This document shows positions 5,501 to 32,000 of a stretch of DNA of 32,000 nt, one piece after another. The translations under genes and the position numbers were made by a program. The stretch is from positions 3,060,001 through 3,092,000 of the forward strand of contig NC_007517.1 of NCBI RefSeq assembly GCF_000012925.1, given 5' to 3'. Positions within the stretch are counted from its first letter, which is position 1. The number at the start of each line of letters is the position of its first letter. Below the pieces are notes generated by a model. The model saw only the letters and a program-made list of their open reading frames with translations, did no database searches and was not told where the DNA came from. This DNA is from Geobacter metallireducens GS-15 (GTDB lineage Bacteria; Desulfobacterota; Desulfuromonadia; Geobacterales; Geobacteraceae).

Positions 5501-5695
5501 CGAATCTCCATCCGTCGGCGGCACCGGCTGCCAGCTGCGGCCGAACCGGCATAATGACACCTACTGTAGTGCCCCGGTCTTCTCTTGTCAATCGCCGGGA
5601 CCGGAGACGGAAGAAATTCGGCAGAGGCAACCGAAGGCGCCATCCCTCAAGAAATTCAGCCGGTTGCGCGACACTCTCATTAATCAATGAAACCC

Positions 5696-5724
5696 TTGAC
5701 AAATCAACATACTGTGCGTTTCAA
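5696..5724 (+). promoter_or_regulatory. Candidate sigma-70 promoter for the HD-GYP gene
   Basis: TTGACA (5696-5701), then a 17-18 nt spacer, then TTTCAAT. It ends about 30 nt upstream of the ATG at 5755. This is a pattern match only. Confidence 0.35.
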
Positions 5725-5754
5725 TAGCCCCATGAATATATCAGGGACCCTTCC

Positions 5755-6711
5755 ATGAAAAGCCGTTTCTACAGACCCCTTTCCCTCGCATCCGTCTCAC
5801 CCTCCTACTTCCCGGAAATCGCCCTCTACGTCAGGAACAGCGGCAATTACATCCTGTACAAGAACCATGACCGGCAGTTCACGGAGGAGGACCGGCACCG
5901 GCTCGAACGGACCAACACCTCATTCCTCTACGTGAGAAGCGGCGACATGGACGCGGTGACCGAATACCTTGAACAGAACCTGGACACCCTCCTGGCGCGG
6001 GACGACATCGACAGCAACGCCAAGGGGACCATCCTCTACCAGACCGCCGCCAACTACGTCACTGACGTCTTTGATGAACCGGGCAAGACCGCGGATATCA
6101 TCCGCTGCCGGAGCCTGATCCGCCACCTCATGAAGTACGTGGCGGGGCACGAAGACGCCCTGAAGGCGCTCCAGGCCATCACGTCCCAGAACTACTACAT
6201 CTTCACCCACAGCGTCCAGGTGGCCGCCCTGATGATGCTGGTCCACGACCGGCTTTTCCGCTTGAACCAGGACGAAATGATTGACGTGGGGATCGGCTCC
6301 CTCCTCCACGACGTGGGAATGGTCTTCTTGTCCGGCCAACTCCTCGACAAACCGGACGCCCTGGCCGCTATCGAGTACCACAAGGCGAAGCAGCATGCCC
6401 AGAAGGGATACGAGCATCTGCAAAGCGCCGGCACCCTGAGCGAGGTTTCGCTGACCATCGTGCGGCACCATCACGAAAAATACGACGGGAGCGGCTACCC
6501 CGCCGGCCTCAAGGGGGACGACATCCCCCGCAGCGCCCAACTGGCGGCCCTCTGCGACACCTACTGCGCCATGACCACCGACCGTCCCAAGCACACCGCC
6601 CTCCCCGGCGCGGAAGCCCTCCGGATCATGGAAGACGAGGTGGGAGGCGCTTTCAGCCCGGATTTGTTCTATCGTTTTGCGGACGTGGTCAAAGGGAAAG
6701 GTAAAGCCTGA
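5755..6711 (+). CDS. HD-GYP domain protein (putative c-di-GMP phosphodiesterase) with an uncharacterised N-terminal domain
   Basis: HD motif (GSLLHDVGM) and HHEKYDGSGYP, the hallmark of HD-GYP. No receiver domain is present. Confidence 0.88.
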   Translation: MKSRFYRPLSLASVSPSYFPEIALYVRNSGNYILYKNHDRQFTEEDRHRLERTNTSFLYVRSGDMDAVTEYLEQNLDTLLARDDIDSNAKGTILYQTAANYVTDVFDEPGKTADIIRCRSLIRHLMKYVAGHEDALKALQAITSQNYYIFTHSVQVAALMMLVHDRLFRLNQDEMIDVGIGSLLHDVGMVFLSGQLLDKPDALAAIEYHKAKQHAQKGYEHLQSAGTLSEVSLTIVRHHHEKYDGSGYPAGLKGDDIPRSAQLAALCDTYCAMTTDRPKHTALPGAEALRIMEDEVGGAFSPDLFYRFADVVKGKGKA

Positions 6712-8136: not shown

Positions 8137-8195
8137 CCCCTCACCCGGCCTTGCGGCCACCCTCTCCCCCGGGGAGAGGGGTTGGGGGTGAGGGG
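8137..8195 (+). repeat. REP-like nested palindromic intergenic element, copy 1
   Basis: CCCCTCACCCggccttgcggccaCCCTCTCCcccggGGAGAGGGgttgGGGTGAGGGG. The outer 10-bp arms and the inner CCCTCTCC/GGAGAGGG arms are both complementary. The first ~45 nt are shared with the copies at 15683 and 29535 (reverse orientation). Confidence 0.8.
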
Positions 8196-8208
8196 CCGGT
8201 GCCGCGTT

Positions 8209-8766
8209 TCAGTACCCCTTGAGAGCGAAAATCCCCGGTGCGTTCCGCCAATACCCCTTGTAGTCCATGCCGAAGCCGAAGAGATAGCGATCCGGCGTCC
8301 TGAGCCCCACGAACTCGGGGACCAGGTCGGGACGGGCCTTGCGGTCATGCTCCTTGTCGATCAGCACGGCCGTCAGCACCTCCTTCGCCTCCATGCCCCG
8401 GCACCAGTCGGCAATGGCGCCCAGGGTCTCCCCCTCGTCCAGGATGTCGTCGATGATGAGGACGGTGCGGTCCTTCAGTTCCTTGGTCGGCCGCACCTTC
8501 CAGTCGAGGACGGTGCCGTAGAGCTTGTGGCCGTAACGGGTGGCGTGGAGGTACTCCGCCTCCAGGGGGAATTCCAGCTTCGGCAGGAGTTTGCCGGTAA
8601 CGATGATCCCCCCCTTCATGACGCAGAAGACGACGGGGTTGGCATCGGCCAGCCGTGCGGTGATCTCCCGCGCCATCCGGTCGATGGTCTCTTCAACCTG
8701 GGGAGCGGTGTAGAGACAGTCGGCCTCCGCGTAGACTTGTTTTACCTCGTCGAGGGTGACGGACAT
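8209..8766 (-). CDS. hpt: Hypoxanthine-guanine phosphoribosyltransferase-like PRTase
   Basis: PRPP-binding motif VLIIDDILDEGETL and a ~185-aa type-I PRTase layout. It sits upstream of a purine permease on the same strand. Confidence 0.82.
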   Translation of the reverse strand: MSVTLDEVKQVYAEADCLYTAPQVEETIDRMAREITARLADANPVVFCVMKGGIIVTGKLLPKLEFPLEAEYLHATRYGHKLYGTVLDWKVRPTKELKDRTVLIIDDILDEGETLGAIADWCRGMEAKEVLTAVLIDKEHDRKARPDLVPEFVGLRTPDRYLFGFGMDYKGYWRNAPGIFALKGY

Positions 8767-8823
8767 GGGAACCTCCGGGCGTTGAAAATAGTGGAAATGA
8801 AAATTTCGCTCAGAAACAAATAC

Positions 8824-10629
8824 TCACGAATTGTTCCGAATCGCCTCAAGAAACGCCGCGCCGTAGCGCCCGAGCTTCTGCTCCCCTACCCCGTTCACCC
8901 GCAGGAGGTCGTCCATGGTTGCGGGACGCAGGGTCGCCATCTCGACCAGCGTGGCGTCGCTGAAGATGACATAGGGGGGGACCTGCTGCTCGTCGGCCAG
9001 TCGCTTGCGGAGAGCCCTCAGCGCCTGGAAGAGATCCTCGTCCCTCTCGGCCAGCGATGCCACTACCCCCTTACGCTTCGGCTCCTTTTTGACCGGGGCA
9101 ACCTTCACCCGGGGCTTCGCAAGGGTCAGGCTCACCTCCCCCCGCAACAGGGGACGGGCCGCCGGGGTCAGCTTCAGCACCGAATAGTTGGCCAGGTCCT
9201 GCTCCAGGTACCCGCGATGAATAAGCTGGCGGATGATGCTTCCCCACGCCTCGGCGGAGCGGTCCGCGCCGATGCCGTAGGTGGAGAGGCGATCGTGGCC
9301 CAGCTGCTGGATCCGCTCGTTTTTCGAGCCCCGCAGCACGTCGATCACATGCCCCATGCCGAAGCGCTGCCCCACCCGGTAGACGCAGGAGAGGGCCTTG
9401 CGGGCATCCTCGGTGGCGTCGAAGCTCTCGGGGGGATCGAGACAGAGATCGCAGTTGCCGCACGGCTCGGCAAGCCGCTCGCCGAAATAGCCCAGGAGCG
9501 CCTCCCGGCGGCAGGTGCCGGCCTCGGCGAACCCCACCATGGCGTTCAGCTTGTGGAGCTCGATCCGCACCTGTTCCGGATTGTTGCCGGACTCGATGAG
9601 GGAGCGGGAGACGGCAATATCTCCATAGCCGAAGAGAAGGAGCGCCTCGGCCGGCAGCCCGTCGCGCCCGGCCCGGCCCGTCTCCTGGTAGTAGCTCTCG
9701 ATGTTCTTGGGAAGGTCGTAGTGGACCACGAACCGGACGTTGGGCTTGTCGATCCCCATGCCGAAGGCGACGGTGGCCACCACAACGCGGACATCATCCC
9801 GCAGGAACGCCTCCTGGACCCGGCCCCGCTCGCCGTCGGCCAGCCCCGCATGGTAGGCGGCCGCCTCGATGCCGGCATCCCGCAGCTTGCCGGCCACCTC
9901 CTCCACCCGCTTTCTGGAGAGGGCGTAGACGATGCCGGCATCCTGAGGGCGGTTCCCCAGAAACGCCAGGAGCTGGTGAAAGGGCTTCTGCTTATCGACC
10001 ACGGTGTACCGGATGTTCGGCCGGTCGAAGCCGGTGACGTAGACCTGGGCGTCCCGAAGCCCCAGCCGGTCGATGATGTCGCTGCGGGTCTGGACGTCGG
10101 CGGTGGCGGTGAGGGCGATGACCGGCACGCCGGGGAAGAGCCCCCGCAGCCGCCCCAGCCCCACGTACTCGGGGCGGAAGTCGTGCCCCCACTGGGAAAC
10201 GCAGTGGGCCTCGTCGATGGCGAAAAGGGCCACGGGGATCTCCCGGAGCCGCTCCAGAAAGGCGTCGGTCATGAGCCGCTCCGGCGCCACGTAGAGGAGA
10301 TCCAGCTCGCCCGCGTGGAGCCGGGCCAGGACCTGCCGGGCCTCCCGCTCGCCCATGGCGGAATTGTAGGCCGCGGCCGCCACGCCGTTCTCCCGCAGCG
10401 TATCCACCTGGTCCTTCATGAGGGAGATGAGGGGAGAGACCACGATGCCGACGCCGGGACGGTGGATGGCCGGAATCTGGTAGCAGAGGGACTTTCCGCC
10501 CCCCGTCGGCATGAGGACAAAGGCATCGCCGCCGCCGATGAGACGGGTGACGATCTCCTCCTGGAAGGGGCGGAAGGTGCGGTAGCCGAAGACCGTCCGG
10601 AGGGTGTCGAGGGGATTGTTGGCGATCAC
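8824..10629 (-). CDS. recQ: ATP-dependent DNA helicase RecQ
   Basis: PTGGGKS Walker A, DEAH box (FAIDEAHCVSQWGHDFRPEY), a RecQ Zn-binding cluster (CRR..CGNCDLC), and winged-helix plus C-terminal HRDC domains. The GTG start overlaps the upstream stop (GTGA). Confidence 0.95.
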   Translation of the reverse strand: MIANNPLDTLRTVFGYRTFRPFQEEIVTRLIGGGDAFVLMPTGGGKSLCYQIPAIHRPGVGIVVSPLISLMKDQVDTLRENGVAAAAYNSAMGEREARQVLARLHAGELDLLYVAPERLMTDAFLERLREIPVALFAIDEAHCVSQWGHDFRPEYVGLGRLRGLFPGVPVIALTATADVQTRSDIIDRLGLRDAQVYVTGFDRPNIRYTVVDKQKPFHQLLAFLGNRPQDAGIVYALSRKRVEEVAGKLRDAGIEAAAYHAGLADGERGRVQEAFLRDDVRVVVATVAFGMGIDKPNVRFVVHYDLPKNIESYYQETGRAGRDGLPAEALLLFGYGDIAVSRSLIESGNNPEQVRIELHKLNAMVGFAEAGTCRREALLGYFGERLAEPCGNCDLCLDPPESFDATEDARKALSCVYRVGQRFGMGHVIDVLRGSKNERIQQLGHDRLSTYGIGADRSAEAWGSIIRQLIHRGYLEQDLANYSVLKLTPAARPLLRGEVSLTLAKPRVKVAPVKKEPKRKGVVASLAERDEDLFQALRALRKRLADEQQVPPYVIFSDATLVEMATLRPATMDDLLRVNGVGEQKLGRYGAAFLEAIRNNS

Positions 10630-11504
10630 AGTTCCCTCAGCACCCGAAAGCCGAGATAGACATACTGCCCATCGGGGGCGCCGCGTCCCCGGGCTGAGGA
10701 GCGGATGTAACGGACCTTGCTCCCGAAGGAGCCACCCCGCTGGACGCGGCGGGTGTCGTCGCCGCCGAGCCAGGGGGAGCCGTCAGTGGGAGCTCCGGTA
10801 TAGCTGTCGTGCCAGGTGTCGAGGCACCATTCCCAGACGTTGCCTGCCGTATCGAAGAGGCCATAGGGATTCGCGGCGAAGGAGCCCGCCGGCGCACCCT
10901 TCTTGTTGTCCCACTTGCTGCCGCACCCCTTGCAGTTGGCCCTTTTTTCGCCGGCGGTTCCCCCCCACCAGAAGGGGGTATCCTTGCCGCCACGGGCCGC
11001 GAACTCCCACTCGGCCTCGCTGGGGAGCCGGTACTTCTGCCCCGTCTGCTCCGACAGCCACTTGGCATAGGCTACGGCATCCTCCCAGCTGACGTTCATG
11101 GCCGGCATCCGTCCCCGGCCCCAGTCCCGGGAGAGAGGACCGAACCAGCGACGGCCGTCCTTGGGCTTCTCCCGGCCGGTGGCATCGCAAAACCGGTCGT
11201 ACTCCCCGAAGGTCACCTCATACTTCCCCATGGCGAAGGGGCGGGCGATTGATACCCAGTGGACCGGCTTCTCGTCGGGGTCGCCGCCGCCGAAGATGGC
11301 CCCCATCCGGAACTTGCCGGCGGGGATGACCACCATCTCGGGACCGGAGGAGCCATTCTTCAGGCGATCGCGGAAAACCGAGCCGGCCGCGGGGGGAGGC
11401 GAAGAAACTTTTGCCGCGGGTTTCACTTCGGCAGCCAATGGCGATACAATAACGAGAAATGCCAGGAGCGCCGCTCCCGTGGCCAGACGGTGGGTATTCA
11501 TCAT
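10626..11504 (-). CDS. Secreted formylglycine-generating-enzyme (FGE/SUMF1) domain protein
   Basis: Signal peptide (MMNTHRLATGAALLAFLVIVSPLAA) and FGE-sulfatase motifs (GNVWEWCLDTW, RGGSF, RVLRE). I trimmed the start to the ATGATG at 11504, behind an AAGGAG RBS. Confidence 0.85.
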   Translation of the reverse strand: MMNTHRLATGAALLAFLVIVSPLAAEVKPAAKVSSPPPAAGSVFRDRLKNGSSGPEMVVIPAGKFRMGAIFGGGDPDEKPVHWVSIARPFAMGKYEVTFGEYDRFCDATGREKPKDGRRWFGPLSRDWGRGRMPAMNVSWEDAVAYAKWLSEQTGQKYRLPSEAEWEFAARGGKDTPFWWGGTAGEKRANCKGCGSKWDNKKGAPAGSFAANPYGLFDTAGNVWEWCLDTWHDSYTGAPTDGSPWLGGDDTRRVQRGGSFGSKVRYIRSSARGRGAPDGQYVYLGFRVLREL

Positions 11505-11917: not shown

Positions 11918-12163
11918 GTGTACCAGCCCACTGAAATCACCCGCTTTTTCCAGGTTCCGCGCCATGACCTCGCCTACCTGAAGTTCATCGTGGAAGCCTA
12001 CGAAGGCCTTGCCACCCTCAGTACGGCTGACCGGAAAACCAGCACTGTCGTCATCACGTATAATAGTTATTTCGCGGGAACATTAGACGCCCTCCTCAAA
12101 TCGCTCGGCACCGAAATTGCTATCAAAGAGGTGTCAGCCACGGAGTTTTCCAGCCATGCTTGA
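11918..12163 (+). CDS. Small conserved protein (DUF4911-like, from memory)
   Basis: 81 codons with a GTG start behind GGGAG. The composition is balanced and non-repetitive (FIVEAYEGLATLST..). Its stop overlaps the tldD ATG by 8 nt, which suggests co-translation. Confidence 0.6.
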   Translation: MYQPTEITRFFQVPRHDLAYLKFIVEAYEGLATLSTADRKTSTVVITYNSYFAGTLDALLKSLGTEIAIKEVSATEFSSHA

Positions 12164-17078: not shown

Positions 17079-17093
17079 GCCTTATAAGCCTTC

Positions 17094-17236
17094 AATAACA
17101 CGGAGAACCGGAGAACACGGAGTAGAATCAGTCAATTGCCATTCAAAACCATCTGATTGGCATCACCTGCTGAGACCCCAACCAAATCCATTAACGTTAT
17201 TGATTTTCTCCGTGCTCTCCGTTTCTCCGTGTTATT
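17094..17236. repeat. 143-nt element with 29-nt inverted terminal arms between convergent genes
   Basis: The left arm aataacacggagaaccggagaacacggag (17094-17122) and the right arm ctccgtgctctccgtttctccgtgttatt (17208-17236) are complementary at 27/29 positions, with an 85-nt spacer. The arms contain a tandem cggagaac. Confidence 0.7.
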
Positions 17237-17249
17237 CAAACTAACTTTT

Positions 17250-19286
17250 TCAGGAAAGTTTCTCCCGCATCCGGGCGAAGAAATCCTGGGCCATGGCCTC
17301 CTGCTCCTCCTCGGTGGCGGCCTTCTTCACCTCACCTTCATGAACTTGCACGAGCCGCTCCGGAATCTCCTCCAGGAAGCGGCTCGGCTGCCGCTCCAGG
17401 AGCTTGCCGTACTTCTTCCGGTGGAGGCAGCGGGTTATGGTGAGGTGCCGGCGGGCCCGGGTGATCCCCACGTAGCAGAGGCGCCGCTCCTCGTCGATGC
17501 TCATCCCCTCCTCCACGGACTTCTTGTGGGGGAGGATCTCCTCCTCGAACCCCACTAAAAAAACGAAGGGGAACTCCAGCCCCTTGCTGGAGTGGAGCGA
17601 CATGAGCGTCACGGCATCCTTGCCATGCTCCTTCTTGTCCTTGCCGCTGAAGCGATCCTCGTCCATGAGGGAGACCTTCTCCAGGAACCCCGAGAGGGTC
17701 GCCCCCGGAATCCTCTCCTCGTACCCCGCCATGGAGTTGATGATCTGCTCCACGTTCTCCACCTTGCGCCGGGCCGTGGCCGGCTCCTCGATGGTACGGT
17801 AGAGCTCCTCCTCAAGGCCGATCCGGTCGTAGAACCCCTTCACCCGCGCCGCCAGATCTCCCGGACGGCGGAACTCCCCGGCCGCGCCCGTGATGAGCCG
17901 GTGGAAGGTCAGGACCTTCTCCCGGGTCGCGCCAGGGATGCCTTCGATCTCCTCCACCCTCCCCATAGCCTCCAAGAGCGGGCATTCGTGCTCCAGGGAC
18001 CACTGGTTGATCTTCACCACGGTCCCGTCGCCGATCCCCCGGCGGGGGAAATTCACCACCCGCAACAGGGCCTGCTCGTCCAGGGGGTTGTCGATCACCT
18101 TCAGGTACGAGAGGGCGTCCTTAACCTCCTTGCGCTCGTAGAACTGCATCCCCCCCACGAGCACGTAGGGGATGTCCTCGAAGCGGAGCTGCTCCTCGAA
18201 GGCCCGGCTCTGGGAGTTGGTCCGGTAGAGGATGGCGAAGTCGCCGAAGGAGAGGTTATGCTGGTAGCGCTCCATCTGGAGCCGCTCCACCACCAGGGTC
18301 GCCTCCTCCTCGTCGTCCTGGGCGATGACCATGTCGATGGGGCGTCCCTCCCCCACATCGGTCCAGAGACGCTTCTCCTTCCGTTTCGCGTTGTTCTTGA
18401 TGACCTGGTTCGCCGCCTCCAAGATCGTGCCGGTGGAGCGGTAGTTCTGCTCCAGCTTCACCACCCGGCACCCCGGGTAGTCCCGCTCGAAGTCGAGGAT
18501 GTTCCCCACGTCGGCCCCGCGCCAGCCGTAGATGGACTGATCATCGTCCCCCACCACGCAGAGGTTGCGGTACTTCCGCGCCAGGAGCGAAATGAAGAGA
18601 TACTGGGAGGCGTTGGTGTCCTGGTACTCGTCCACCATGATATAGCGGAAGCGCTCCTGCCAGTGGTCCAGCACCTCAGGGTAGTCCTGGAGGAGCCGCA
18701 CCGTCAGCATGATGATGTCGTCGAAGTCGATGGCGTTGCAGGCGTGGAGGAGCGCCTGGTAGCGAGGGTAGACGTCGCAGGCCAGGAGCTCGTCGGGATC
18801 GTCGTAGCGGGGGACGGCCCGGTCCGGCGGGATGAGTCCGTTTTTCCAGCCGGAGATCCGCCAGAGGAGCGTCTCGGCGTCGAACTTCTTCCCGTCGGCG
18901 TTCACCTCCCGCATGGCCTGGCGGATGAGGCCGATCTGGTCCGAGGTGGTGTAGATGCTGAAATTCTTCTTGTAACCGAGCCGTTCGATGTCCCGGCGCA
19001 GGATTCGGACCCCCAGTGAGTGGAAGGTGGAGATGACCATCCCCTTGGCCTTGCCACGCCCAACCAGCTCGCGGACCCGCTCCTTCATCTCGCCTGCCGC
19101 CTTGTTGGTGAAGGTGACCGCCAGGATGTCCTCGGCCTTCACCTTCTTGTCGAGAAGGAGGTGGCCGATCCGGTACGTGATGACCCGGGTCTTGCCGGAG
19201 CCGGCGCCGGCCAGGACCAGGAGCGGCCCCTCGGTGTGCTCCGCAGCGGCCCGCTGGGGTGGATTGAGGGTGGAGAGGTCAAGCAT
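17250..19286 (-). CDS. UvrD/Rep/PcrA-family SF1 ATP-dependent DNA helicase
   Basis: GAGSGKT Walker A, DEYQDT motif II, a YRS.. motif and VGITRA near the C-terminus. It is 678 aa long. Confidence 0.93.
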   Translation of the reverse strand: MLDLSTLNPPQRAAAEHTEGPLLVLAGAGSGKTRVITYRIGHLLLDKKVKAEDILAVTFTNKAAGEMKERVRELVGRGKAKGMVISTFHSLGVRILRRDIERLGYKKNFSIYTTSDQIGLIRQAMREVNADGKKFDAETLLWRISGWKNGLIPPDRAVPRYDDPDELLACDVYPRYQALLHACNAIDFDDIIMLTVRLLQDYPEVLDHWQERFRYIMVDEYQDTNASQYLFISLLARKYRNLCVVGDDDQSIYGWRGADVGNILDFERDYPGCRVVKLEQNYRSTGTILEAANQVIKNNAKRKEKRLWTDVGEGRPIDMVIAQDDEEEATLVVERLQMERYQHNLSFGDFAILYRTNSQSRAFEEQLRFEDIPYVLVGGMQFYERKEVKDALSYLKVIDNPLDEQALLRVVNFPRRGIGDGTVVKINQWSLEHECPLLEAMGRVEEIEGIPGATREKVLTFHRLITGAAGEFRRPGDLAARVKGFYDRIGLEEELYRTIEEPATARRKVENVEQIINSMAGYEERIPGATLSGFLEKVSLMDEDRFSGKDKKEHGKDAVTLMSLHSSKGLEFPFVFLVGFEEEILPHKKSVEEGMSIDEERRLCYVGITRARRHLTITRCLHRKKYGKLLERQPSRFLEEIPERLVQVHEGEVKKAATEEEQEAMAQDFFARMREKLS

Positions 19287-19296
19287 AAAAATAATC

Positions 19297-19417
19297 CTCG
19301 AAACGGTTGAATCGGTGCTCCAGACGCACGACAGCCGGGCTGGTCGGCCCGGCTGTCATCATTGATAGCAGAGGTGTCGGGAGAAATGCAAGGGAGCGAT
19401 TACCGTGCCAAGGGAAA
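19297..19417. repeat. Direct repeat copy A (~121 bp) flanking the PEP-CTERM cassette
   Basis: It aligns with 20773-20893 at roughly 85-90% identity by eye. The blocks atcggtgctc, acagccgggctggtcggcccggctgtca, cattgatagcagaggt and gcgattaccgtgccaaggg are identical. Confidence 0.8.
19395..19411 (-). promoter_or_regulatory. Sigma-54-type -24/-12 element inside repeat A
   Basis: The minus strand reads TTGGCACGgtaaTCGCT. The consensus is TGGCACG-N4-TTGCW; the GG-N10-GC spacing is exact and there is one mismatch in the -12 box. It lies ~110 nt upstream of the helicase ATG. Confidence 0.4.
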
Positions 19418-19443
19418 CCGGTTGGAACCATGTCTCCAATGAA

Positions 19444-20283
19444 TTACTTCCGGCGCCTCAGCCACACCACTCCCCCAAGGCCGGCGCCCAGGAGAAGGAA
19501 CGTGGATGGTTCAGGGATCGGGTCTGCCTCCATCGACAGGCCGCGAGAGGTCAGCATGCCGTTGGGAACAACGCTGAAATCGAACATTAAGGCCATCGAA
19601 AACGGATCGACATTGCTAACGCCATAGGGACCGCCGTTGAAACCGAACGAATCATGATCACTGGTTGCTGTATCGCTGAAGCTCGCAACCAGATCTCCCG
19701 AAAGCAGCGAGGCCCAGCCCTGGTCAAAGCTATCAAAATCTGCAAAAAGCACCGGCGCAGGATTCGGATTTCCCAGGGTATCAAATGGAACGAACGGAGC
19801 AGCATACTGCCCGTTGTTGGGATCATTATAATACCCCAGAGCAATAGTCGAGCCTGCCGCATTGGTCCACGTGCCGCTGCCGGTGACGAAAGTGGCATTG
19901 GTCGGCGGCTTGAAATCCGTATCACTGACCACGACGAAAGCGCGACTCGTGGTCCCCCTGGTATTGGTCACGGACGATGACGCGCTGGTGAGGATATTCG
20001 GCTCCAAGTGGGCGGTATGATATGAACCTTGGACAACAAAACCTGGGATGGGCTCAAAATTGTTCCCGAGGAGGATTGCATGAGGATTCGGATCAAGGTC
20101 ACCTGCACCATTGTCCACAATTACCCGACTGTAGAAATTGGTGGGATCGGCGGTGTCATACACGGTCACTCCCACCTGGAGTGTCGACGCCTGTGTCGGA
20201 TTTGACTGAACGAGGACCAGCACTACCATGCCGGCGGCAATTGCCAAGGCTTTACTGGTGAAACTTTTCATCTTCCCATTCAT
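19444..20283 (-). CDS. Secreted PEP-CTERM sorting-domain protein
   Basis: The C-terminus ..DPIPEPSTFLLLGAGLGGVVWLRRRK has the PEP motif, a TM helix and a basic tail. It has an N-terminal signal peptide and a Thr/Ser/Asn/Gly-rich body. I set the start at the ATG at 20283, 5 nt after AAAGGAGAG. GC is visibly lower than in the neighbouring genes. Confidence 0.85.
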   Translation of the reverse strand: MNGKMKSFTSKALAIAAGMVVLVLVQSNPTQASTLQVGVTVYDTADPTNFYSRVIVDNGAGDLDPNPHAILLGNNFEPIPGFVVQGSYHTAHLEPNILTSASSSVTNTRGTTSRAFVVVSDTDFKPPTNATFVTGSGTWTNAAGSTIALGYYNDPNNGQYAAPFVPFDTLGNPNPAPVLFADFDSFDQGWASLLSGDLVASFSDTATSDHDSFGFNGGPYGVSNVDPFSMALMFDFSVVPNGMLTSRGLSMEADPIPEPSTFLLLGAGLGGVVWLRRRK

Positions 20284-20772
20284 TGTCACTCTCCTTTCAC
20301 AAACTGATTTGTACTTCCGATGGGTGTTGTAACGGTCCTCCTTTCCTGTGATTTTGACCCATCCTCACGGGAATGGGTAAGCATCTCAGATATCGACCGC
20401 GTTACGGCAGGTTCATAGTGCCAGCACAGGGTGGTAACAAAGTAAAACAACACAACCAACACAACGGCAACCAAACGGAATTATTGCACTTTTTTCAAAA
20501 TTAAAGTTGCATAATCCAAGCCATGACGTAACATGGCGATTCTTCGCACGTTGAACATTAAAATTGAGCCAACATTAAAATATCATTACACTTTTTGTAA
20601 AATGTCCAGGGCACATCTGTAAGAACCCTCGACACACAGGCATAACTTAATGAAATCACAAGAAATAACGAGCCACGTTAGCTAATTTCAACTAATTGGG
20701 AGATGGGCGCTACATTGGCACATTGGCTTTGTCGTGGGGGGAAGGTCCGGTGAAGGGCTCAGGCATTGGAAT

Positions 20773-20893
20773 CTCGAAACGGCAAATCGGTGCTCAAAAC
20801 GCACAACAGCCGGGCTGGTCGGCCCGGCTGTCACCATTGATAGCAGAGGTATCAGGCGAAATACGAGAAGGCGATTACCGTGCCAAGGGGAAA
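20773..20893. repeat. Direct repeat copy B (~121 bp)
   Basis: See copy A. It begins 13 nt beyond the ypfJ stop codon (20906). Confidence 0.8.
20870..20886 (-). promoter_or_regulatory. Sigma-54-type -24/-12 element inside repeat B
   Basis: The minus strand reads TTGGCACGgtaaTCGCC. The core 16 nt are identical to copy A and the GG-N10-GC spacing is exact. Confidence 0.4.
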
Positions 20894-20905
20894 GGCACCA
20901 TCAAT

Positions 20906-21760
20906 CTACAACGATTGGGCCCCGAAGGTATTGCACGCCCCGAAGTTGCCGGTGTCGAGGCCGGTTTTGAACCAGCGGACCCGCTGCTCGGAGCTGCCGT
21001 GGGTGAAGCTTTCGGGGACGACGTACCCCTGGGCCTGCTGCTGGAGGCGGTCGTCGCCGATGCTGGTGGCCGCCTGGAGCGCCTCCTCCACGTCGCCGCT
21101 TTCGAGAACCTGCCGGCTCCGGTCGGCGTGGTGGGCCCAGATGCCGGCCAGGCAGTCGGCCTGGAGCTCCAGTCGCACCGAGAGCTGGTTCGCCTGGGTC
21201 TTACCGCTCCGCTGCTGGAGGTCGTGGGCCTTCTCCGAAATGCCGAGGAGCGACTGGACGTGGTGCCCCACTTCGTGGGCGATGACGTACGCCTGGGCAA
21301 AGTCCCCCGGCGCCTTGAAGCGCTCCTTCAGGTCCCGGTAGAAGCTGAGGTCGATGTAGACCTTCTGGTCCAGGGGGCAGTAAAAGGGGCCCATGGCGGC
21401 CTGGGCATAGCCGCAGGCCGACTCCACGGCGCCGGTGAAGAGGACCAGCTTCGGCTCCTGGTAGGTCTTGCCGTTCTTCCGGAAGAGCTCGTGCCAGGTA
21501 TCCTCGGTGTCGGCCAGAACCACCGACACAAACTGGGCAAGTTCGTCACTGGCGGGAGGCTTGCCGGCCTGTCTCGTCTCTGTCGGCGCTGTGAGGGGAG
21601 AGCCCCCCTGCTGCAGGACCACCGACGGGTCGATGCCGAAGTACATGGCGACCAGCGCGAGAATGATCGTGCCGATGCCGCCCCCCACCGCCTTCCGGCC
21701 AACGGTCATCCCCCGGCGGTCTTCCACGTTGTCGCTTCTCCGTCCGTCACTCCATCGCAT
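20906..21760 (-). CDS. ypfJ: YpfJ-family putative neutral zinc metallopeptidase
   Basis: N-terminal MRWSDGRRSDNVEDRRG followed by a TM helix, and a HEVGHH zinc motif. The layout is typical of the Zn_peptidase (YpfJ) family. Confidence 0.85.
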   Translation of the reverse strand: MRWSDGRRSDNVEDRRGMTVGRKAVGGGIGTIILALVAMYFGIDPSVVLQQGGSPLTAPTETRQAGKPPASDELAQFVSVVLADTEDTWHELFRKNGKTYQEPKLVLFTGAVESACGYAQAAMGPFYCPLDQKVYIDLSFYRDLKERFKAPGDFAQAYVIAHEVGHHVQSLLGISEKAHDLQQRSGKTQANQLSVRLELQADCLAGIWAHHADRSRQVLESGDVEEALQAATSIGDDRLQQQAQGYVVPESFTHGSSEQRVRWFKTGLDTGNFGACNTFGAQSL

Positions 21761-21844
21761 GGCAAGGCACTCCTGTCATGGTCTGCCGATTGAATGCACA
21801 CGGGGCGCGGATAACCCCCATGAACCATCCGCGCCCCGTGTCAG

Positions 21845-23041
21845 CTATTTCTTTGTCACCCGGACGTCGATCCTTCTGTTCTGCTGCCGTCCTTCCTCCG
21901 TGGCGTTGTCGGCAACCGGATGCTCCTCCCCGTACCCTTCGGATTCAAGGCGGGAGGGATCGATGCCCAGCTTCACCAGTTCCTGCATGGTGTTGCTTGC
22001 CCGGTCCCGGGAGAGCTTGAGGTTTGCTTGGGGATCACCCACGTTGTCGGTGTAGCCGCCGATCTTGATGGCCACCTGGGGGAACGCCTTGAGGATCGCG
22101 GCGATATTGCCGAGTTGCTCCTGGGATGAAGGCTTCAGCACGGCGCTGCCGGTCTCGAACTGGAGCCGGTCGAAGGTGAACCAGGTGGTCTTGTCCACGG
22201 GTCTCGCCCCATCCTGGATGAAGGCGAGGAGCTTCCGCTCGATGCCGAATTCGGGAATGTTCAGGGTGACGCCGTCGGGGAGCGTCACATCACCGAAGGC
22301 TCCCAGCTTCGGATCAACCTTGACGGCCGGTGCCTGCACTTGGGGCGGCGCCGGCTGGATTGCCGGAGTCTTCATGGAGCAGCGCTGGGGCAATGTGTAC
22401 AGGAGGAAGGCAACCACGATGCCGGCCAGAATCCAGACGATCTTCGAGAGGGGGCCGGAGAAGAGGGCGCTGGGGCACGCGCCGCCCCCGAGGCCCGACA
22501 GGCTGGAGAGGCCGAGCAGGCCGGCCAGTCCCGCCGGGGCGGCCTGTTGCAGAAATGGCCCCTGGCCTTCCAGGAGCCCCGAAAGCCCCACCGCCCCCAG
22601 ATCCTTCTCCTGTGCCTCCTTGCCGATCTTCCCCATGACGAAGGGGGCCAGGAGAGCCAGCAGCGACTGGGCGCTCCCCTTTCCGAGGCCGCTCACGGAC
22701 GACAGCCACTCCGCAACCCCGCCGGCCCTGTTGCCGAGGAGCGAGCCGACGAGGGAGTTTCCCTGCTCCAGGAGCCCCTTGGTCGCCTCACCCCCTGCCA
22801 GTGACGCGGCCATCCCCGAGAGGGTATTCTCCCCGAACCCGCCGGAGCGGACCTGACCGAGAATCTGCGACGCACCGTCCGTCGACACACCCTTTGCCGC
22901 AACCCCACCCACCAATGCCGAGAGGGCAGCCGGCACCCCCTTCTGGACGGCCGGCGTTCCCTCCCCCAGAAAATGGCCGATCTGCCCCACTAGGTCACTG
23001 GTAAACATCCCGCTAAGCTGCTCCAACAGGTTCGTCGCCAT
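21845..23041 (-). CDS. DUF937-like N-terminal domain / TM helix / C-terminal OmpA-MotB peptidoglycan-binding domain protein
   Basis: The C-terminus GYTDNVGDPQANLKLSRDRA..NRRIDVRV is a canonical OmpA_C-like domain. The Gly/Ala/Leu-rich N-terminal half starts MATNLLEQL. I set the start at the ATG at 23041, behind an AAGGAGGG RBS. Confidence 0.85.
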   Translation of the reverse strand: MATNLLEQLSGMFTSDLVGQIGHFLGEGTPAVQKGVPAALSALVGGVAAKGVSTDGASQILGQVRSGGFGENTLSGMAASLAGGEATKGLLEQGNSLVGSLLGNRAGGVAEWLSSVSGLGKGSAQSLLALLAPFVMGKIGKEAQEKDLGAVGLSGLLEGQGPFLQQAAPAGLAGLLGLSSLSGLGGGACPSALFSGPLSKIVWILAGIVVAFLLYTLPQRCSMKTPAIQPAPPQVQAPAVKVDPKLGAFGDVTLPDGVTLNIPEFGIERKLLAFIQDGARPVDKTTWFTFDRLQFETGSAVLKPSSQEQLGNIAAILKAFPQVAIKIGGYTDNVGDPQANLKLSRDRASNTMQELVKLGIDPSRLESEGYGEEHPVADNATEEGRQQNRRIDVRVTKK

Positions 23042-23233
23042 GGCTCCCTCCTTGTGACGTGGCAATCACCACTATTCGCGCCGTGTCCGGCAGTGACAAT
23101 TAAAACATACTTATTGCGACATTCAATCCTTTCGAGGTTTTAGCGAAAAGTCGCGTCCTTGTACCCTGCTCTACCGAAAACCAGAGGCGCCTGTAACCAA
23201 TCCCTGCACAGCCCTGTTAACCATCCCGACAAA

Positions 23234-25585
<2,352 letters not shown>

Positions 25586-31215: not shown

Positions 31216-32000
31216 ATGGTTATCTCGGCACTTCTCGTCTGTTTCACCCTTCTTTTCACCGGTGCCCCCCCCCTCCACGCCGCAGAGGAGAGTGACTCAA
31301 ATTTGTTGGAGCTCTACTACGAGCCCAGCGATTTGGCGGTATCAGCCGCCACCCGCTCCCCCCGCCCCCTTTCCCGCAGCGCCGAAGACATCACCGTGGT
31401 CACCGCCGCGGAGATCGAGGCCCAGAACGCCCATAACCTGGCAGAGGTGCTGAACAGGGTCCCCGGGGTCCAGGTCGACCTGCGGGGTGGACTCGTCACC
31501 GACTACTCGCTGCTGGGCTCCAGTTTCCGCCATGTCCTGGTCCTCGTGGATGGCGTCTCCATGAGCAATCTGTCCGACAACGCCGCGGTCATCGCCCAGA
31601 TCCCGGTGGGGAACATCGAACGGATCGAAATCGTGAAGGGGCCGGCCTCCACGGCCTGGGGCTCCGCCCTGGGGGGGGTCATCAACGTTATCACTAAATC
31701 CCCCCGGGAAACTGCCATCCCCGGCGGGTCCGCCTCCTTCTCCGGGGGGGAGCGCGGCACCCGCGACGCCCAAGGCGAGCTGACCGGGACCATGGGACGG
31801 CTGGGCTACTACCTCTCGGGCGGCAACGTCCGGTCCGACGGCTTCCGCCCCCATAATGCCTCCGACAGCAACAACCTCTATGCCAAGCTCCTCTGGAGCC
31901 TCCGCGACAAGGGGAGCATCCGCTTCACCATCAACTACCTCAAGGGTGCAGCGGGCGAAGGGGTCTTCCCGCTCCCCGCCCGGCTGCTCCCCATTCTGTC
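31216..32000 (+). CDS. TonB-dependent outer-membrane receptor (plug domain and start of barrel); 3' end truncated by the window edge
   Basis: I translated frame 1 by hand. It has a signal peptide (MVISALLVCFTLLFTGAPPLHA-AEE) and plug motifs (ITVVTAAEIEAQNAHNLAEVLNRVPGVQVD, VLVDGVSMSN, IERIEIVKGPASTAWGSALGGVINVITK). The frame is open to base 32000. It is absent from the ORF track because it has no stop codon. The start is uncertain; an in-frame ATG at 31132 also exists. Confidence 0.88.
   Translation, partial: MVISALLVCFTLLFTGAPPLHAAEESDSNLLELYYEPSDLAVSAATRSPRPLSRSAEDITVVTAAEIEAQNAHNLAEVLNRVPGVQVDLRGGLVTDYSLLGSSFRHVLVLVDGVSMSNLSDNAAVIAQIPVGNIERIEIVKGPASTAWGSALGGVINVITKSPRETAIPGGSASFSGGERGTRDAQGELTGTMGRLGYYLSGGNVRSDGFRPHNASDSNNLYAKLLWSLRDKGSIRFTINYLKGAAGEGVFPLPARLLPIL

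Follow-up and report, generated by a model that had tools for sequence, protein, structure and literature searches.

The stretch of DNA considered here, referred to as the window, comprises 32,000 nucleotides (nt) of Geobacter metallireducens GS-15 (NC_007517.1, positions 3,060,001-3,092,000), and all coordinates below are window-based unless another sequence is named. The window encodes a UvrD/PcrA-type helicase whose orthologs occur across the Geobacteraceae at 70-98% identity. Immediately upstream of this gene lies one copy (copy A) of a 108-nt direct repeat; a second copy (copy B), 88% identical to the first, is found 1475 nt away. Read along the minus strand, the order of features is a DUF937-OmpA gene, a Zn-metallopeptidase (Zn-peptidase) gene, copy B, a low-GC stretch, a PEP-CTERM gene, copy A, and the helicase gene (Table 1). 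Each copy contains a box of the sigma-54 (RpoN) type and a GC-rich hairpin. A preliminary description of this DNA asked whether the two copies are paralogous regulatory or small RNA (sRNA) modules. Comparison with related genomes points elsewhere. We put a probability of about 0.6 on the view that the repeat is the native promoter-leader region of the helicase gene, which was duplicated within the lineage along with the insertion of a cassette carrying the PEP-CTERM gene.

The sequences and coordinates of box and hairpin, the 10-nt spacing between the GG and GC of the box, and the TGTGCG-TTTT tail behind the copy B hairpin are exactly as the preliminary description had them. Beyond the 108-nt core, weaker homology between the copies spans approximately 165 nt in the alignment, starting at the upstream gene's stop codon and ending about 18 nt inside the helicase open reading frame (ORF). 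Only one of the 13 mismatches between the copies falls within the two blocks formed by box and hairpin (43 nt; hypergeometric P = 0.009), and seven are concentrated in the 20-nt spacer past the -12 element (P = 0.002). Taken by itself, the longest stretch of identity (28 nt) does not reach significance (P = 0.21). The region in which the copies diverge most, i.e., the spacer including a -35 hexamer, is also the most variable region among orthologs. The functional support for these elements comes from their conservation in other genomes and not from the comparison of the two copies within this one.

Table 1. Coordinates of the repeat copies, their elements and neighbouring features in the window
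Feature	Position	Strand	Remarks
UvrD/PcrA-type helicase gene	17250-19286	minus	678 aa; Pfam UvrD-helicase, E = 3e-92
Shine-Dalgarno sequence of helicase gene	19295-19299	minus	GAGGA; weakened to GAGA in copy B
Repeat copy A, core	19310-19417	minus	weaker homology to copy B from ~19438 down to ~19269
Leader hairpin, copy A	19331-19356	minus	ACAGCCGGGC-cgacca-GCCCGGCTGT
Extended -10-like element, copy A	19362-19370	minus	TGCTATCAA
-35-like hexamer, copy A	19386-19391	minus	TTGCAT; 4 nt past the -12 GC plus one base
Sigma-54-type -24/-12 box, copy A	19395-19411	minus	TTGGCACGGTAATCGCT; 1 mismatch to consensus
Low-GC cassette	19444-20748	minus	~1.3 kb; PEP-CTERM ORF plus ~460 nt upstream
PEP-CTERM ORF	19444-20289	minus	ATG at 20283; Pfam PF07589
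Low-GC stretch	20290 to ~20748	minus	~460 nt
Candidate sigma-54 promoter of PEP-CTERM gene	20508-20524	minus	ATGGCTTGGATTATGCA; 15.1 bits; ~224 nt before ATG
Inverted repeat	20586-20602	minus	TTTTACAAAAAGTGTAA; 61 nt upstream of the candidate promoter
Helicase-start remnant in copy B	20749-20766	minus	ATGCCTGAGCCCTTCACC
Repeat copy B, core	20785-20892	minus	between Zn-peptidase gene and PEP-CTERM cassette; homology from ~20915 down to 20749
Hairpin, copy B	20806-20831	minus	identical to copy A
-10 equivalent, copy B	20837-20845	minus	
-35 position, copy B	20861-20866	minus	changed to TCGTAT
Sigma-54-type box, copy B	20870-20886	minus	TTGGCACGGTAATCGCC; 2 mismatches to consensus
Zn-metallopeptidase gene	20906-21760	minus	Pfam PF04228, E = 4.9e-123; upstream of copy B
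DUF937-OmpA gene	21845-23065	minus	
ligA	23292-25307	opposite to helicase, PEP-CTERM and Zn-peptidase genes	

Elements conserved upstream of the helicase gene

Elsewhere in the family, the same set of elements (hereafter the module) is present as one copy per locus, immediately 5' of the helicase start. The loci are three from Geobacter (L014, L091 and L092, with 98%, 96% and 89% helicase identity), a Desulfuromonadales metagenome-assembled genome (L095, 86%), G. soli/anodireducens (L096, 85%), a genome deposited as Geotalea uraniireducens (L098, 83%), Geotalea uraniireducens Rf4 (L108, 75%), a Geomonas (L011, 71%), and two metagenome contigs (L100 and L101). The upstream neighbour varies among these single-copy loci and may be a divergent ligA, the Zn-peptidase gene or a remnant of it, or an S8 peptidase, PLD-family or hemerythrin gene. 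Copy A is collinear with the single module of L014, L091, L100 and L101. L100 has the order Zn-peptidase, module, helicase, and thus matches the window except for the insertion and the duplication. No module was found at four more distant helicase loci (L012, L013, L109 and L110), and a pattern scan of metagenomes returned two further loci only, both upstream of a helicase gene.

The box of both copies reads TTGGCACGGTAATCGC(T/C), i.e., TGGCACG-GTAA-TCGC. Sites with up to two mismatches to TGGCACG-N4-TTGCW number 7 in the window vs 4.15 expected, and the consensus match by itself is weak evidence for a sigma-54 site. The window was also scored with a position weight matrix (PWM) trained on 89 G. 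sulfurreducens sites from the list of Leang et al. (2009), which are themselves PromScan predictions. Copy A scored 13.8 bits (31st percentile of the training set; 0.5 such matches expected per 32 kb), copy B 10.0 bits (8th percentile; 5.9 expected), and the orthologous G. sulfurreducens site 8.5 bits. These scores are only moderate because the base at -14 is non-consensus. The two best matches in the window lie away from the repeat: TCGGCACCGAAATTGCT (12105-12121, plus strand, 16.5 bits), which overlaps the listed start (12117) of a PmbA/TldD ORF, and TTGGCATAGAGGTTGTT (31870-31886, minus strand, 15.9 bits), located 16 nt before an unannotated ORF of 170 amino acids.

What the consensus match, near chance as it is, does not provide is supplied by conservation. 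The box, as TGGCA(C/T)G-N4-T(C/A)GC(C/T), is kept upstream of the helicase ortholog in nine single-copy regions from Geobacter, Geotalea and Geomonas. It is identical to that of copy A in L014, L091, L100 and L101 and is conserved with spacer changes in L092, L096, L108 and L011; across orthologs the spacer may read GGTA, GGAT or GAAT, and the base at -21 is C or T. Outside the box the Geomonas region does not align, yet the box itself reads TGGCATGGATATAGCC in Geomonas and Geotalea alike. A sigma-54 site before the helicase gene, which had been thought unusual, thus appears to be the conserved state in these three genera.

It had also been predicted before. Leang et al. (2009; PMC2725144) list an RpoN "Promoter 37" upstream of GSU0891.1 of G. 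sulfurreducens, with a PromScan score of 85 in the middle range of 110 computational candidates. The gene (954472-956514, COG0210; Additional files 3 and 4 of PMC2725144) can be regarded as the ortholog of the window helicase, because of its length of 2043 nt, its COG assignment, and a site sequence (954365-954381 in G. sulfurreducens) identical in L096. The box before this helicase is therefore, as far as comparison and prediction go, a conserved feature and not a peculiarity of the G. metallireducens genome. On this comparative evidence, together with the earlier prediction, we consider that the -24/-12 box is probably a genuine sigma-54 site.

Several observations weigh against this assignment. 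The base at -14 is C or A in the module, while the training sites have T in 85 of 89 cases, A in one and C in none. The box is absent from L095 and L098, both of which otherwise keep the module (it is also absent from the helicase loci L109 and L110). No conserved upstream activator site was found, the sequences 5' of the box being unrelated among the orthologs compared, and the scanned ORFs of the window include no protein with a Sigma54_activat domain. An activator that is encoded elsewhere, or that does not bind DNA, may serve the box.

The same observations bear on a less probable reading that keeps some weight, namely that the box is not read by sigma-54 and is instead a transcription-factor site or an UP-like element at about -54 to -39 of a sigma-70 promoter. 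Besides the non-consensus -14 base and the lack of a conserved activator site, it would account for the rigid 4 nt between box and -35 hexamer in 10 of 10 box-bearing sequences, for the unusual conservation of the supposed spacer bases (GGATAT is identical in Geotalea and Geomonas), and for the frequent C at -11. Moreover, GSU0891.1 is found only in the PromScan target-gene list (Additional file 4) of PMC2725144, and not in the expression-change files (1, 2 and 5). However, a TGGCA(C/T)G followed by GC 10 nt past the GG is very unlikely by chance (about 1e-5 per position by our own estimate), the variation seen, i.e., C or T at -21 and spacer changes, is of a kind that sigma-54 sites tolerate, and PromScan places the G. 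sulfurreducens site in the middle range of its candidates.

Between box and hairpin lies a sigma-70-type promoter, recognised by its conservation, that the preliminary description missed. In copy A, its -35-like and extended -10-like elements are 18 nt apart. All 11 single-copy regions have TTGCAT, TTGCGT or TTGATT as the -35 hexamer, at a fixed distance from the box, followed after 17-18 nt by TGnTA(T/A)(C/T)(A/T)N; the spacing is rigid and extends to L095 and L098, which lack the box. CTGnTATCA is invariant in 8 of 8 sequences of one alignment and in 12 of 12 of a larger one (Geobacter and Geotalea), and the Geomonas -10 element reads TGGTAATTA. A simple consensus promoter scan of the window did not call this -35/-10 pair, only three of six bases matching at -35, and a terminator scan of the window called the hairpin of neither copy; the assignment of promoter and hairpin is for this reason a comparative one. 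So judged, both appear to be supported at least as well as the sigma-54 box.

The hairpin has a 10-bp GC-rich stem with a predicted energy of -20.6 kcal/mol and begins 3-9 nt past the -10 element among the module sequences (5-6 nt in copies A and B). Over 12 sequences, the stem core GCCGG..CCGGC never varies and 95% of cells are paired. The loop is different in every ortholog, and its identity in copies A and B consequently argues for recent origin or gene conversion. The earlier proposal of selection on both blocks fits the invariant stem, but not the loop. Geomonas has a hairpin of different sequence, together with CTTTTCGTTT, at the equivalent position.

In L095, L096, L098 (ten Ts), L108 and L011, the hairpin is followed by a U-run. 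The clade of the window has CGTGCGTCTGG instead, plus about 15 extra nt. Behind the copy B stem, TGTGCG precedes TTTT (TGTGCGTTTTG / UGUGCGUUUUG), and this tail contains more U than the one in copy A. Since neither copy has a U-run directly behind the stem, the hairpin is, as noted previously, not a canonical terminator in the window; the window hairpins would be at best a weak version of one. The suggestion that a transcript of about 60 nt is conceivable gains from the conservation of the hairpin and its terminator-like form in relatives. The hairpin of L096 and L098 ends only about 25-35 nt before the ATG, too close for a further promoter to fit in between, and every helicase transcript must then cross it. 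Overall, the hairpin looks like a leader terminator or attenuator.

A longer leader, starting at the sigma-54 site, has a predicted fold in which the Shine-Dalgarno sequence pairs with a CU-rich UCCCGA segment. This pairing is predicted for copy A and for the Geomonas locus L011 and is not consistent across species. No match to Rfam at the gathering threshold was obtained with the whole window, and a scan of 19200-21000 at relaxed thresholds gave only chance-level matches (best E-values 0.29-2.2). An upstream ORF beginning at ATGATG inside the -10 box was considered and rejected, because its frame, stop and presence are not conserved in L091, L096 and L108 on inspection by eye.

Two observations concern the surroundings of the helicase gene. 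The interval between ligA and the helicase gene (approximately 19290-23290 in the window) varies in gene content across most Geobacter genomes examined (L014, L091, L092, L095, L096, L098 and L108): it may hold nothing, or a DUF937-OmpA, Zn-peptidase, S8 peptidase, PLD-family or PEP-CTERM gene, and appears to be a hotspot of gene gain and loss. Downstream, between the convergent peroxiredoxin and helicase genes, there is an inverted repeat with 32-nt arms (17091-17122 and 17208-17239) that are 91% complementary, lie 85 nt apart and are built from CACGGAGAAC-like units; the repeat may form a terminator acting in both directions or some other structured element.

Copy B and the PEP-CTERM cassette

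At its downstream end, copy B retains approximately 18 nt of the helicase start: its ATGCCTGAGCCCTTCACC aligns with ATGCTTGACCTCTCCACC of the helicase gene and ATGCCTGACCTTTCTACC of L100. This remnant marks copy B as a duplicate of the 5' region of the helicase gene. Copy A is 86-89% identical to the orthologous modules, while copy B is 76-79% identical to them and 83% to copy A, and copy B lies on a long branch. Its decay has affected the -35 hexamer, the Shine-Dalgarno sequence and the ORF start. The arrangement copy B-cassette-copy A is shared only with L107, a close relative whose non-coding DNA is about 95% identical. Copy B of the window and that of L107 are 94.1% identical vs 94.8% for the adjoining non-coding DNA, i.e., without detectable extra constraint, and the L107 copy B hairpin carries a change that breaks the stem. 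Copy A appears to be the promoter-leader that the helicase gene uses, and copy B, far from an independent paralog, is best explained as a partly decayed duplicate made when the cassette was inserted.

The cassette itself stands out by GC content (0.36-0.55 in the PEP-CTERM segment vs about 0.63 in the flanks). It is present in L107 and absent from L014, L091, L100 and L101. The PEP-CTERM ORF (compared with positions 623-1366 of L107) is only 77% identical at the DNA level, vs 94-98% for the non-coding flanks, with indels in the middle of the gene; signal peptide and anchor ends are conserved, and the gene looks like that of a hypervariable surface protein or a case of allele replacement. In L014, the Zn-peptidase gene is cut to a 3' remnant of about 140 nt directly before the single module (5664-5858 of that locus), a deletion at the same spot. 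Further upstream in the window, a perfect 15-bp inverted repeat, ACACGGGGCGCGGAT-14 nt-ATCCGCGCCCCGTGT, occupies 21798-21841 between the DUF937-OmpA stop and the Zn-peptidase start and is terminator-like.

If each copy were an independent sigma-54-dependent sRNA gene, maintained as one of two paralogs, the product would be an RNA of about 60-65 nt, CU-rich in its 5' part and carrying a terminator hairpin. Several features fit: the proper U-runs of L096, L108, L098 and L011, which would end a transcript from the sigma-54 site after about 55-65 nt; a CU-rich, anti-Shine-Dalgarno-like segment between box and hairpin in most species; and the retention of box, -10 element and hairpin in copy B, with its U-richer tail. 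We nevertheless find this unlikely. Apart from copy B, the module never occurs away from a helicase start, the two additional metagenome loci included, and the conserved bases of the putative sRNA body coincide with the sigma-70 -35 and -10 elements. The absence of Rfam matches, the poor U-runs in the window, and the comparison of copy B with L107, including the broken stem, speak against it as well. No better is the chance of a wider version, in which the Geobacteraceae helicase gene is preceded by a sigma-54-driven RNA of about 60 nt that overlaps the sigma-70 promoter, has a CU-rich anti-Shine-Dalgarno-like 5' part and ends at the terminator hairpin, so that RpoN both occludes the promoter and makes a regulatory RNA, copy B being a stand-alone sRNA gene.

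As an alternative, the preliminary description proposed that the PEP-CTERM gene is transcribed from a sigma-54 promoter in copy B, its leader then being about 575 nt long. Position and orientation agree with this, and PEP-CTERM genes are linked to sigma-54 and PrsR (PMC1569441, PMC9850573), one such gene being RpoN-dependent by experiment (PMC9850573). According to Haft et al. (2006; PMC1569441), PEP-CTERM genes are single-gene units with long upstream regions in which a motif 1 is followed, after a spacer averaging 62.8 nt, by a sigma-54 motif that lies on average 71 nt and at most 221 nt from the start codon. The same study reports genes for exosortase (EpsH) and for PrsK/PrsR in G. sulfurreducens and G. 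metallireducens; the 32-kb window has no exosortase (EpsH), PrsK or PrsR gene.

The cassette carries a layout of this kind on its own. Its candidate site scores higher than both module copies (15.1 vs 10.0 bits for copy B), is conserved in L107, and has an inverted repeat 61 nt upstream, close to the published average. A similar arrangement is found at 3723-3820 of L106, an unrelated contig with a PEP-CTERM homolog of 51% identity, where CTGTAAAATGTTTTTACAG and TTGGCTTGTCGTTTGCT (16.0 bits) are separated by 62 nt. By its place in this layout TTTTACAAAAAGTGTAA is a possible PrsR-type activator site. The cassette thus resembles the published cis-regions in its single gene, long upstream region, inverted repeat, 61-nt spacer and GG-N10-GC site, and differs in its distance from the ATG, which lies at the top of the published range; the likeness applies to 20508-20602, not to the repeat. 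Having a better candidate of its own, the PEP-CTERM gene would not need copy B as its promoter. Copy B, moreover, is clearly a copy of the helicase promoter, lies outside the cassette, is followed by a strong hairpin of its own with a U-rich tail, and would be far beyond the published distances. The link between PEP-CTERM genes and sigma-54 was rightly drawn, but it attaches to the site within the cassette, and a role of copy B as promoter of the PEP-CTERM gene is very unlikely.

That the hairpin is an intrinsic terminator of the upstream gene (Zn-peptidase or PEP-CTERM), next to promoter-like motifs that arose by chance, is hardly tenable. The hairpins are located 75 nt (copy B, past the Zn-peptidase gene) and 88 nt (copy A, past the PEP-CTERM gene) from the upstream stop codons, and U-runs occur in L095, L096 and L098, whose upstream genes are co-directional. 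However, L091 and L092 carry the hairpin as well, although their upstream gene, ligA, is divergent and supplies no transcript to be terminated; this largely refutes the explanation. Conservation of box and -35/-10 elements, with their spacing fixed, also extends across genera. A small mobile or dispersed element, of the repetitive extragenic palindromic (REP) or miniature inverted-repeat transposable element (MITE) type, might be suggested by a direct repeat with an internal palindrome on both sides of a low-GC insert, but we reject it in view of only two copies in 32 kb, one copy per relative and always at the helicase start, the lack of terminal inverted repeats, and homology reaching into the helicase ORF.

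The view of the repeat as a helicase promoter-leader, duplicated with the cassette insertion, has its own difficulties. It requires a duplication of about 140-165 nt that flanks the insert. Three blocks of copy B are kept beyond uniform decay (P = 0.0004, for blocks chosen partly after looking), and copy B may retain some function. Among the 12 hairpin sequences there are no compensatory pairs, and the copy A tail, CGUGCGUCUGG, is poor in U, so that termination in the window clade may be weak. Start sites, RpoN dependence and termination are predictions from sequence comparison. With these reservations, the feature is real and appears to be a conserved promoter-leader of the helicase gene doubled by an insertion, a fairly ordinary regulatory region. 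One ORF elsewhere in the window deserves a remark: the 825-aa ORF at 8182-10659 (plus strand) has no Pfam match and is overlapped by a long ORF on the opposite strand, so it is perhaps not a real gene.

Proposed mode of action and known counterparts

The elements would act in the order in which they occur: sigma-54 box, 4 nt, sigma-70 promoter, GC-rich hairpin and, in copy A only, Shine-Dalgarno sequence and start codon. Transcription of the helicase gene would begin from the sigma-70 promoter, which places the 5' end of the mRNA at the hairpin or immediately ahead of it; the sigma-54 site may provide another start, about 25-30 nt farther up. The hairpin may terminate or attenuate transcription in the leader, or act as a stabilising 5' stem, and keep helicase expression low; it would be an attenuator where a U-run is present, and a weaker one or a 5'-terminal stabilising stem in the clade of the window.

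Counted from the sigma-70 start, the box covers about -54 to -39, and transcription by sigma-54 holoenzyme would begin just past the -35 hexamer. Because the promoters overlap, the sigma-54 and sigma-70 holoenzymes cannot bind together. The box could thus compete with the sigma-70 promoter or, with an activator, drive the longer leader, whose CU-rich 5' part can pair with the Shine-Dalgarno sequence in several species according to the predicted folds. The lack of a conserved activator site argues against a classical activator-dependent promoter and favours occlusion, a distant-acting activator, or another reader of the box.

Under this proposal, copy A still serves the helicase gene and the PEP-CTERM gene is transcribed from its own sigma-54 promoter. 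Copy B would at most terminate transcripts of the Zn-peptidase gene, which its U-richer tail makes conceivable, or yield a short orphan RNA.

If the proposal is correct, a DNA repair/replication helicase of the Geobacteraceae is wired to RpoN, an essential global sigma factor, and the region offers a compact case of sigma-factor competition and attenuation acting on a gene whose overexpression is usually harmful. Promoter 37 of Leang et al. (2009) would gain comparative support across three genera. The locus would also illustrate that insertion of a foreign gene can duplicate a host promoter-leader and leave behind an orphan promoter and terminator, and such duplicated promoter-leaders can be mistaken for sRNA genes in annotation. 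Current concepts are unchanged by any of this.

The closest counterpart is Promoter 37 itself, the orthologous site in G. sulfurreducens: CTGGCACGAATATCGCC lies 91 nt before the COG0210 helicase gene and aligns with copy A (PMC2725144). There it is a PromScan prediction for a gene mis-annotated as "subtilase domain protein", and that work describes neither the duplication nor the sigma-70 promoter and leader hairpin next to the site.

For the overlap of promoters, the E. coli crl gene provides a parallel, as reported by Zafar (2014) and cited in PMC4591121: its sigma-54 site is likewise too near the sigma-70 promoter for joint binding, and sigma-54 holoenzyme can sit on DNA without transcribing and represses overlapping promoters. 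The module differs from such pairs in that it precedes a repair/replication helicase gene, has a fixed 4-nt juxtaposition and includes a putative leader terminator. The glnAp1/glnAp2 promoters are a further overlapping sigma-54/sigma-70 pair, from which the module differs in the same respects.

For the leader, a likeness exists to E. coli uvrD, where an attenuator, reportedly described by Easton and Kushner in 1983, is said to limit expression. Both genes encode UvrD-family helicases and have a terminator-like hairpin between promoter and start codon. The E. coli gene is LexA-controlled, whereas the module shows no recognisable LexA-type box, has an upstream element of the sigma-54 type, and carries a weak U-run in the window clade. 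The module thus appears to combine overlapping sigma-54 and sigma-70 promoters with a leader terminator, each of which is of a known kind.

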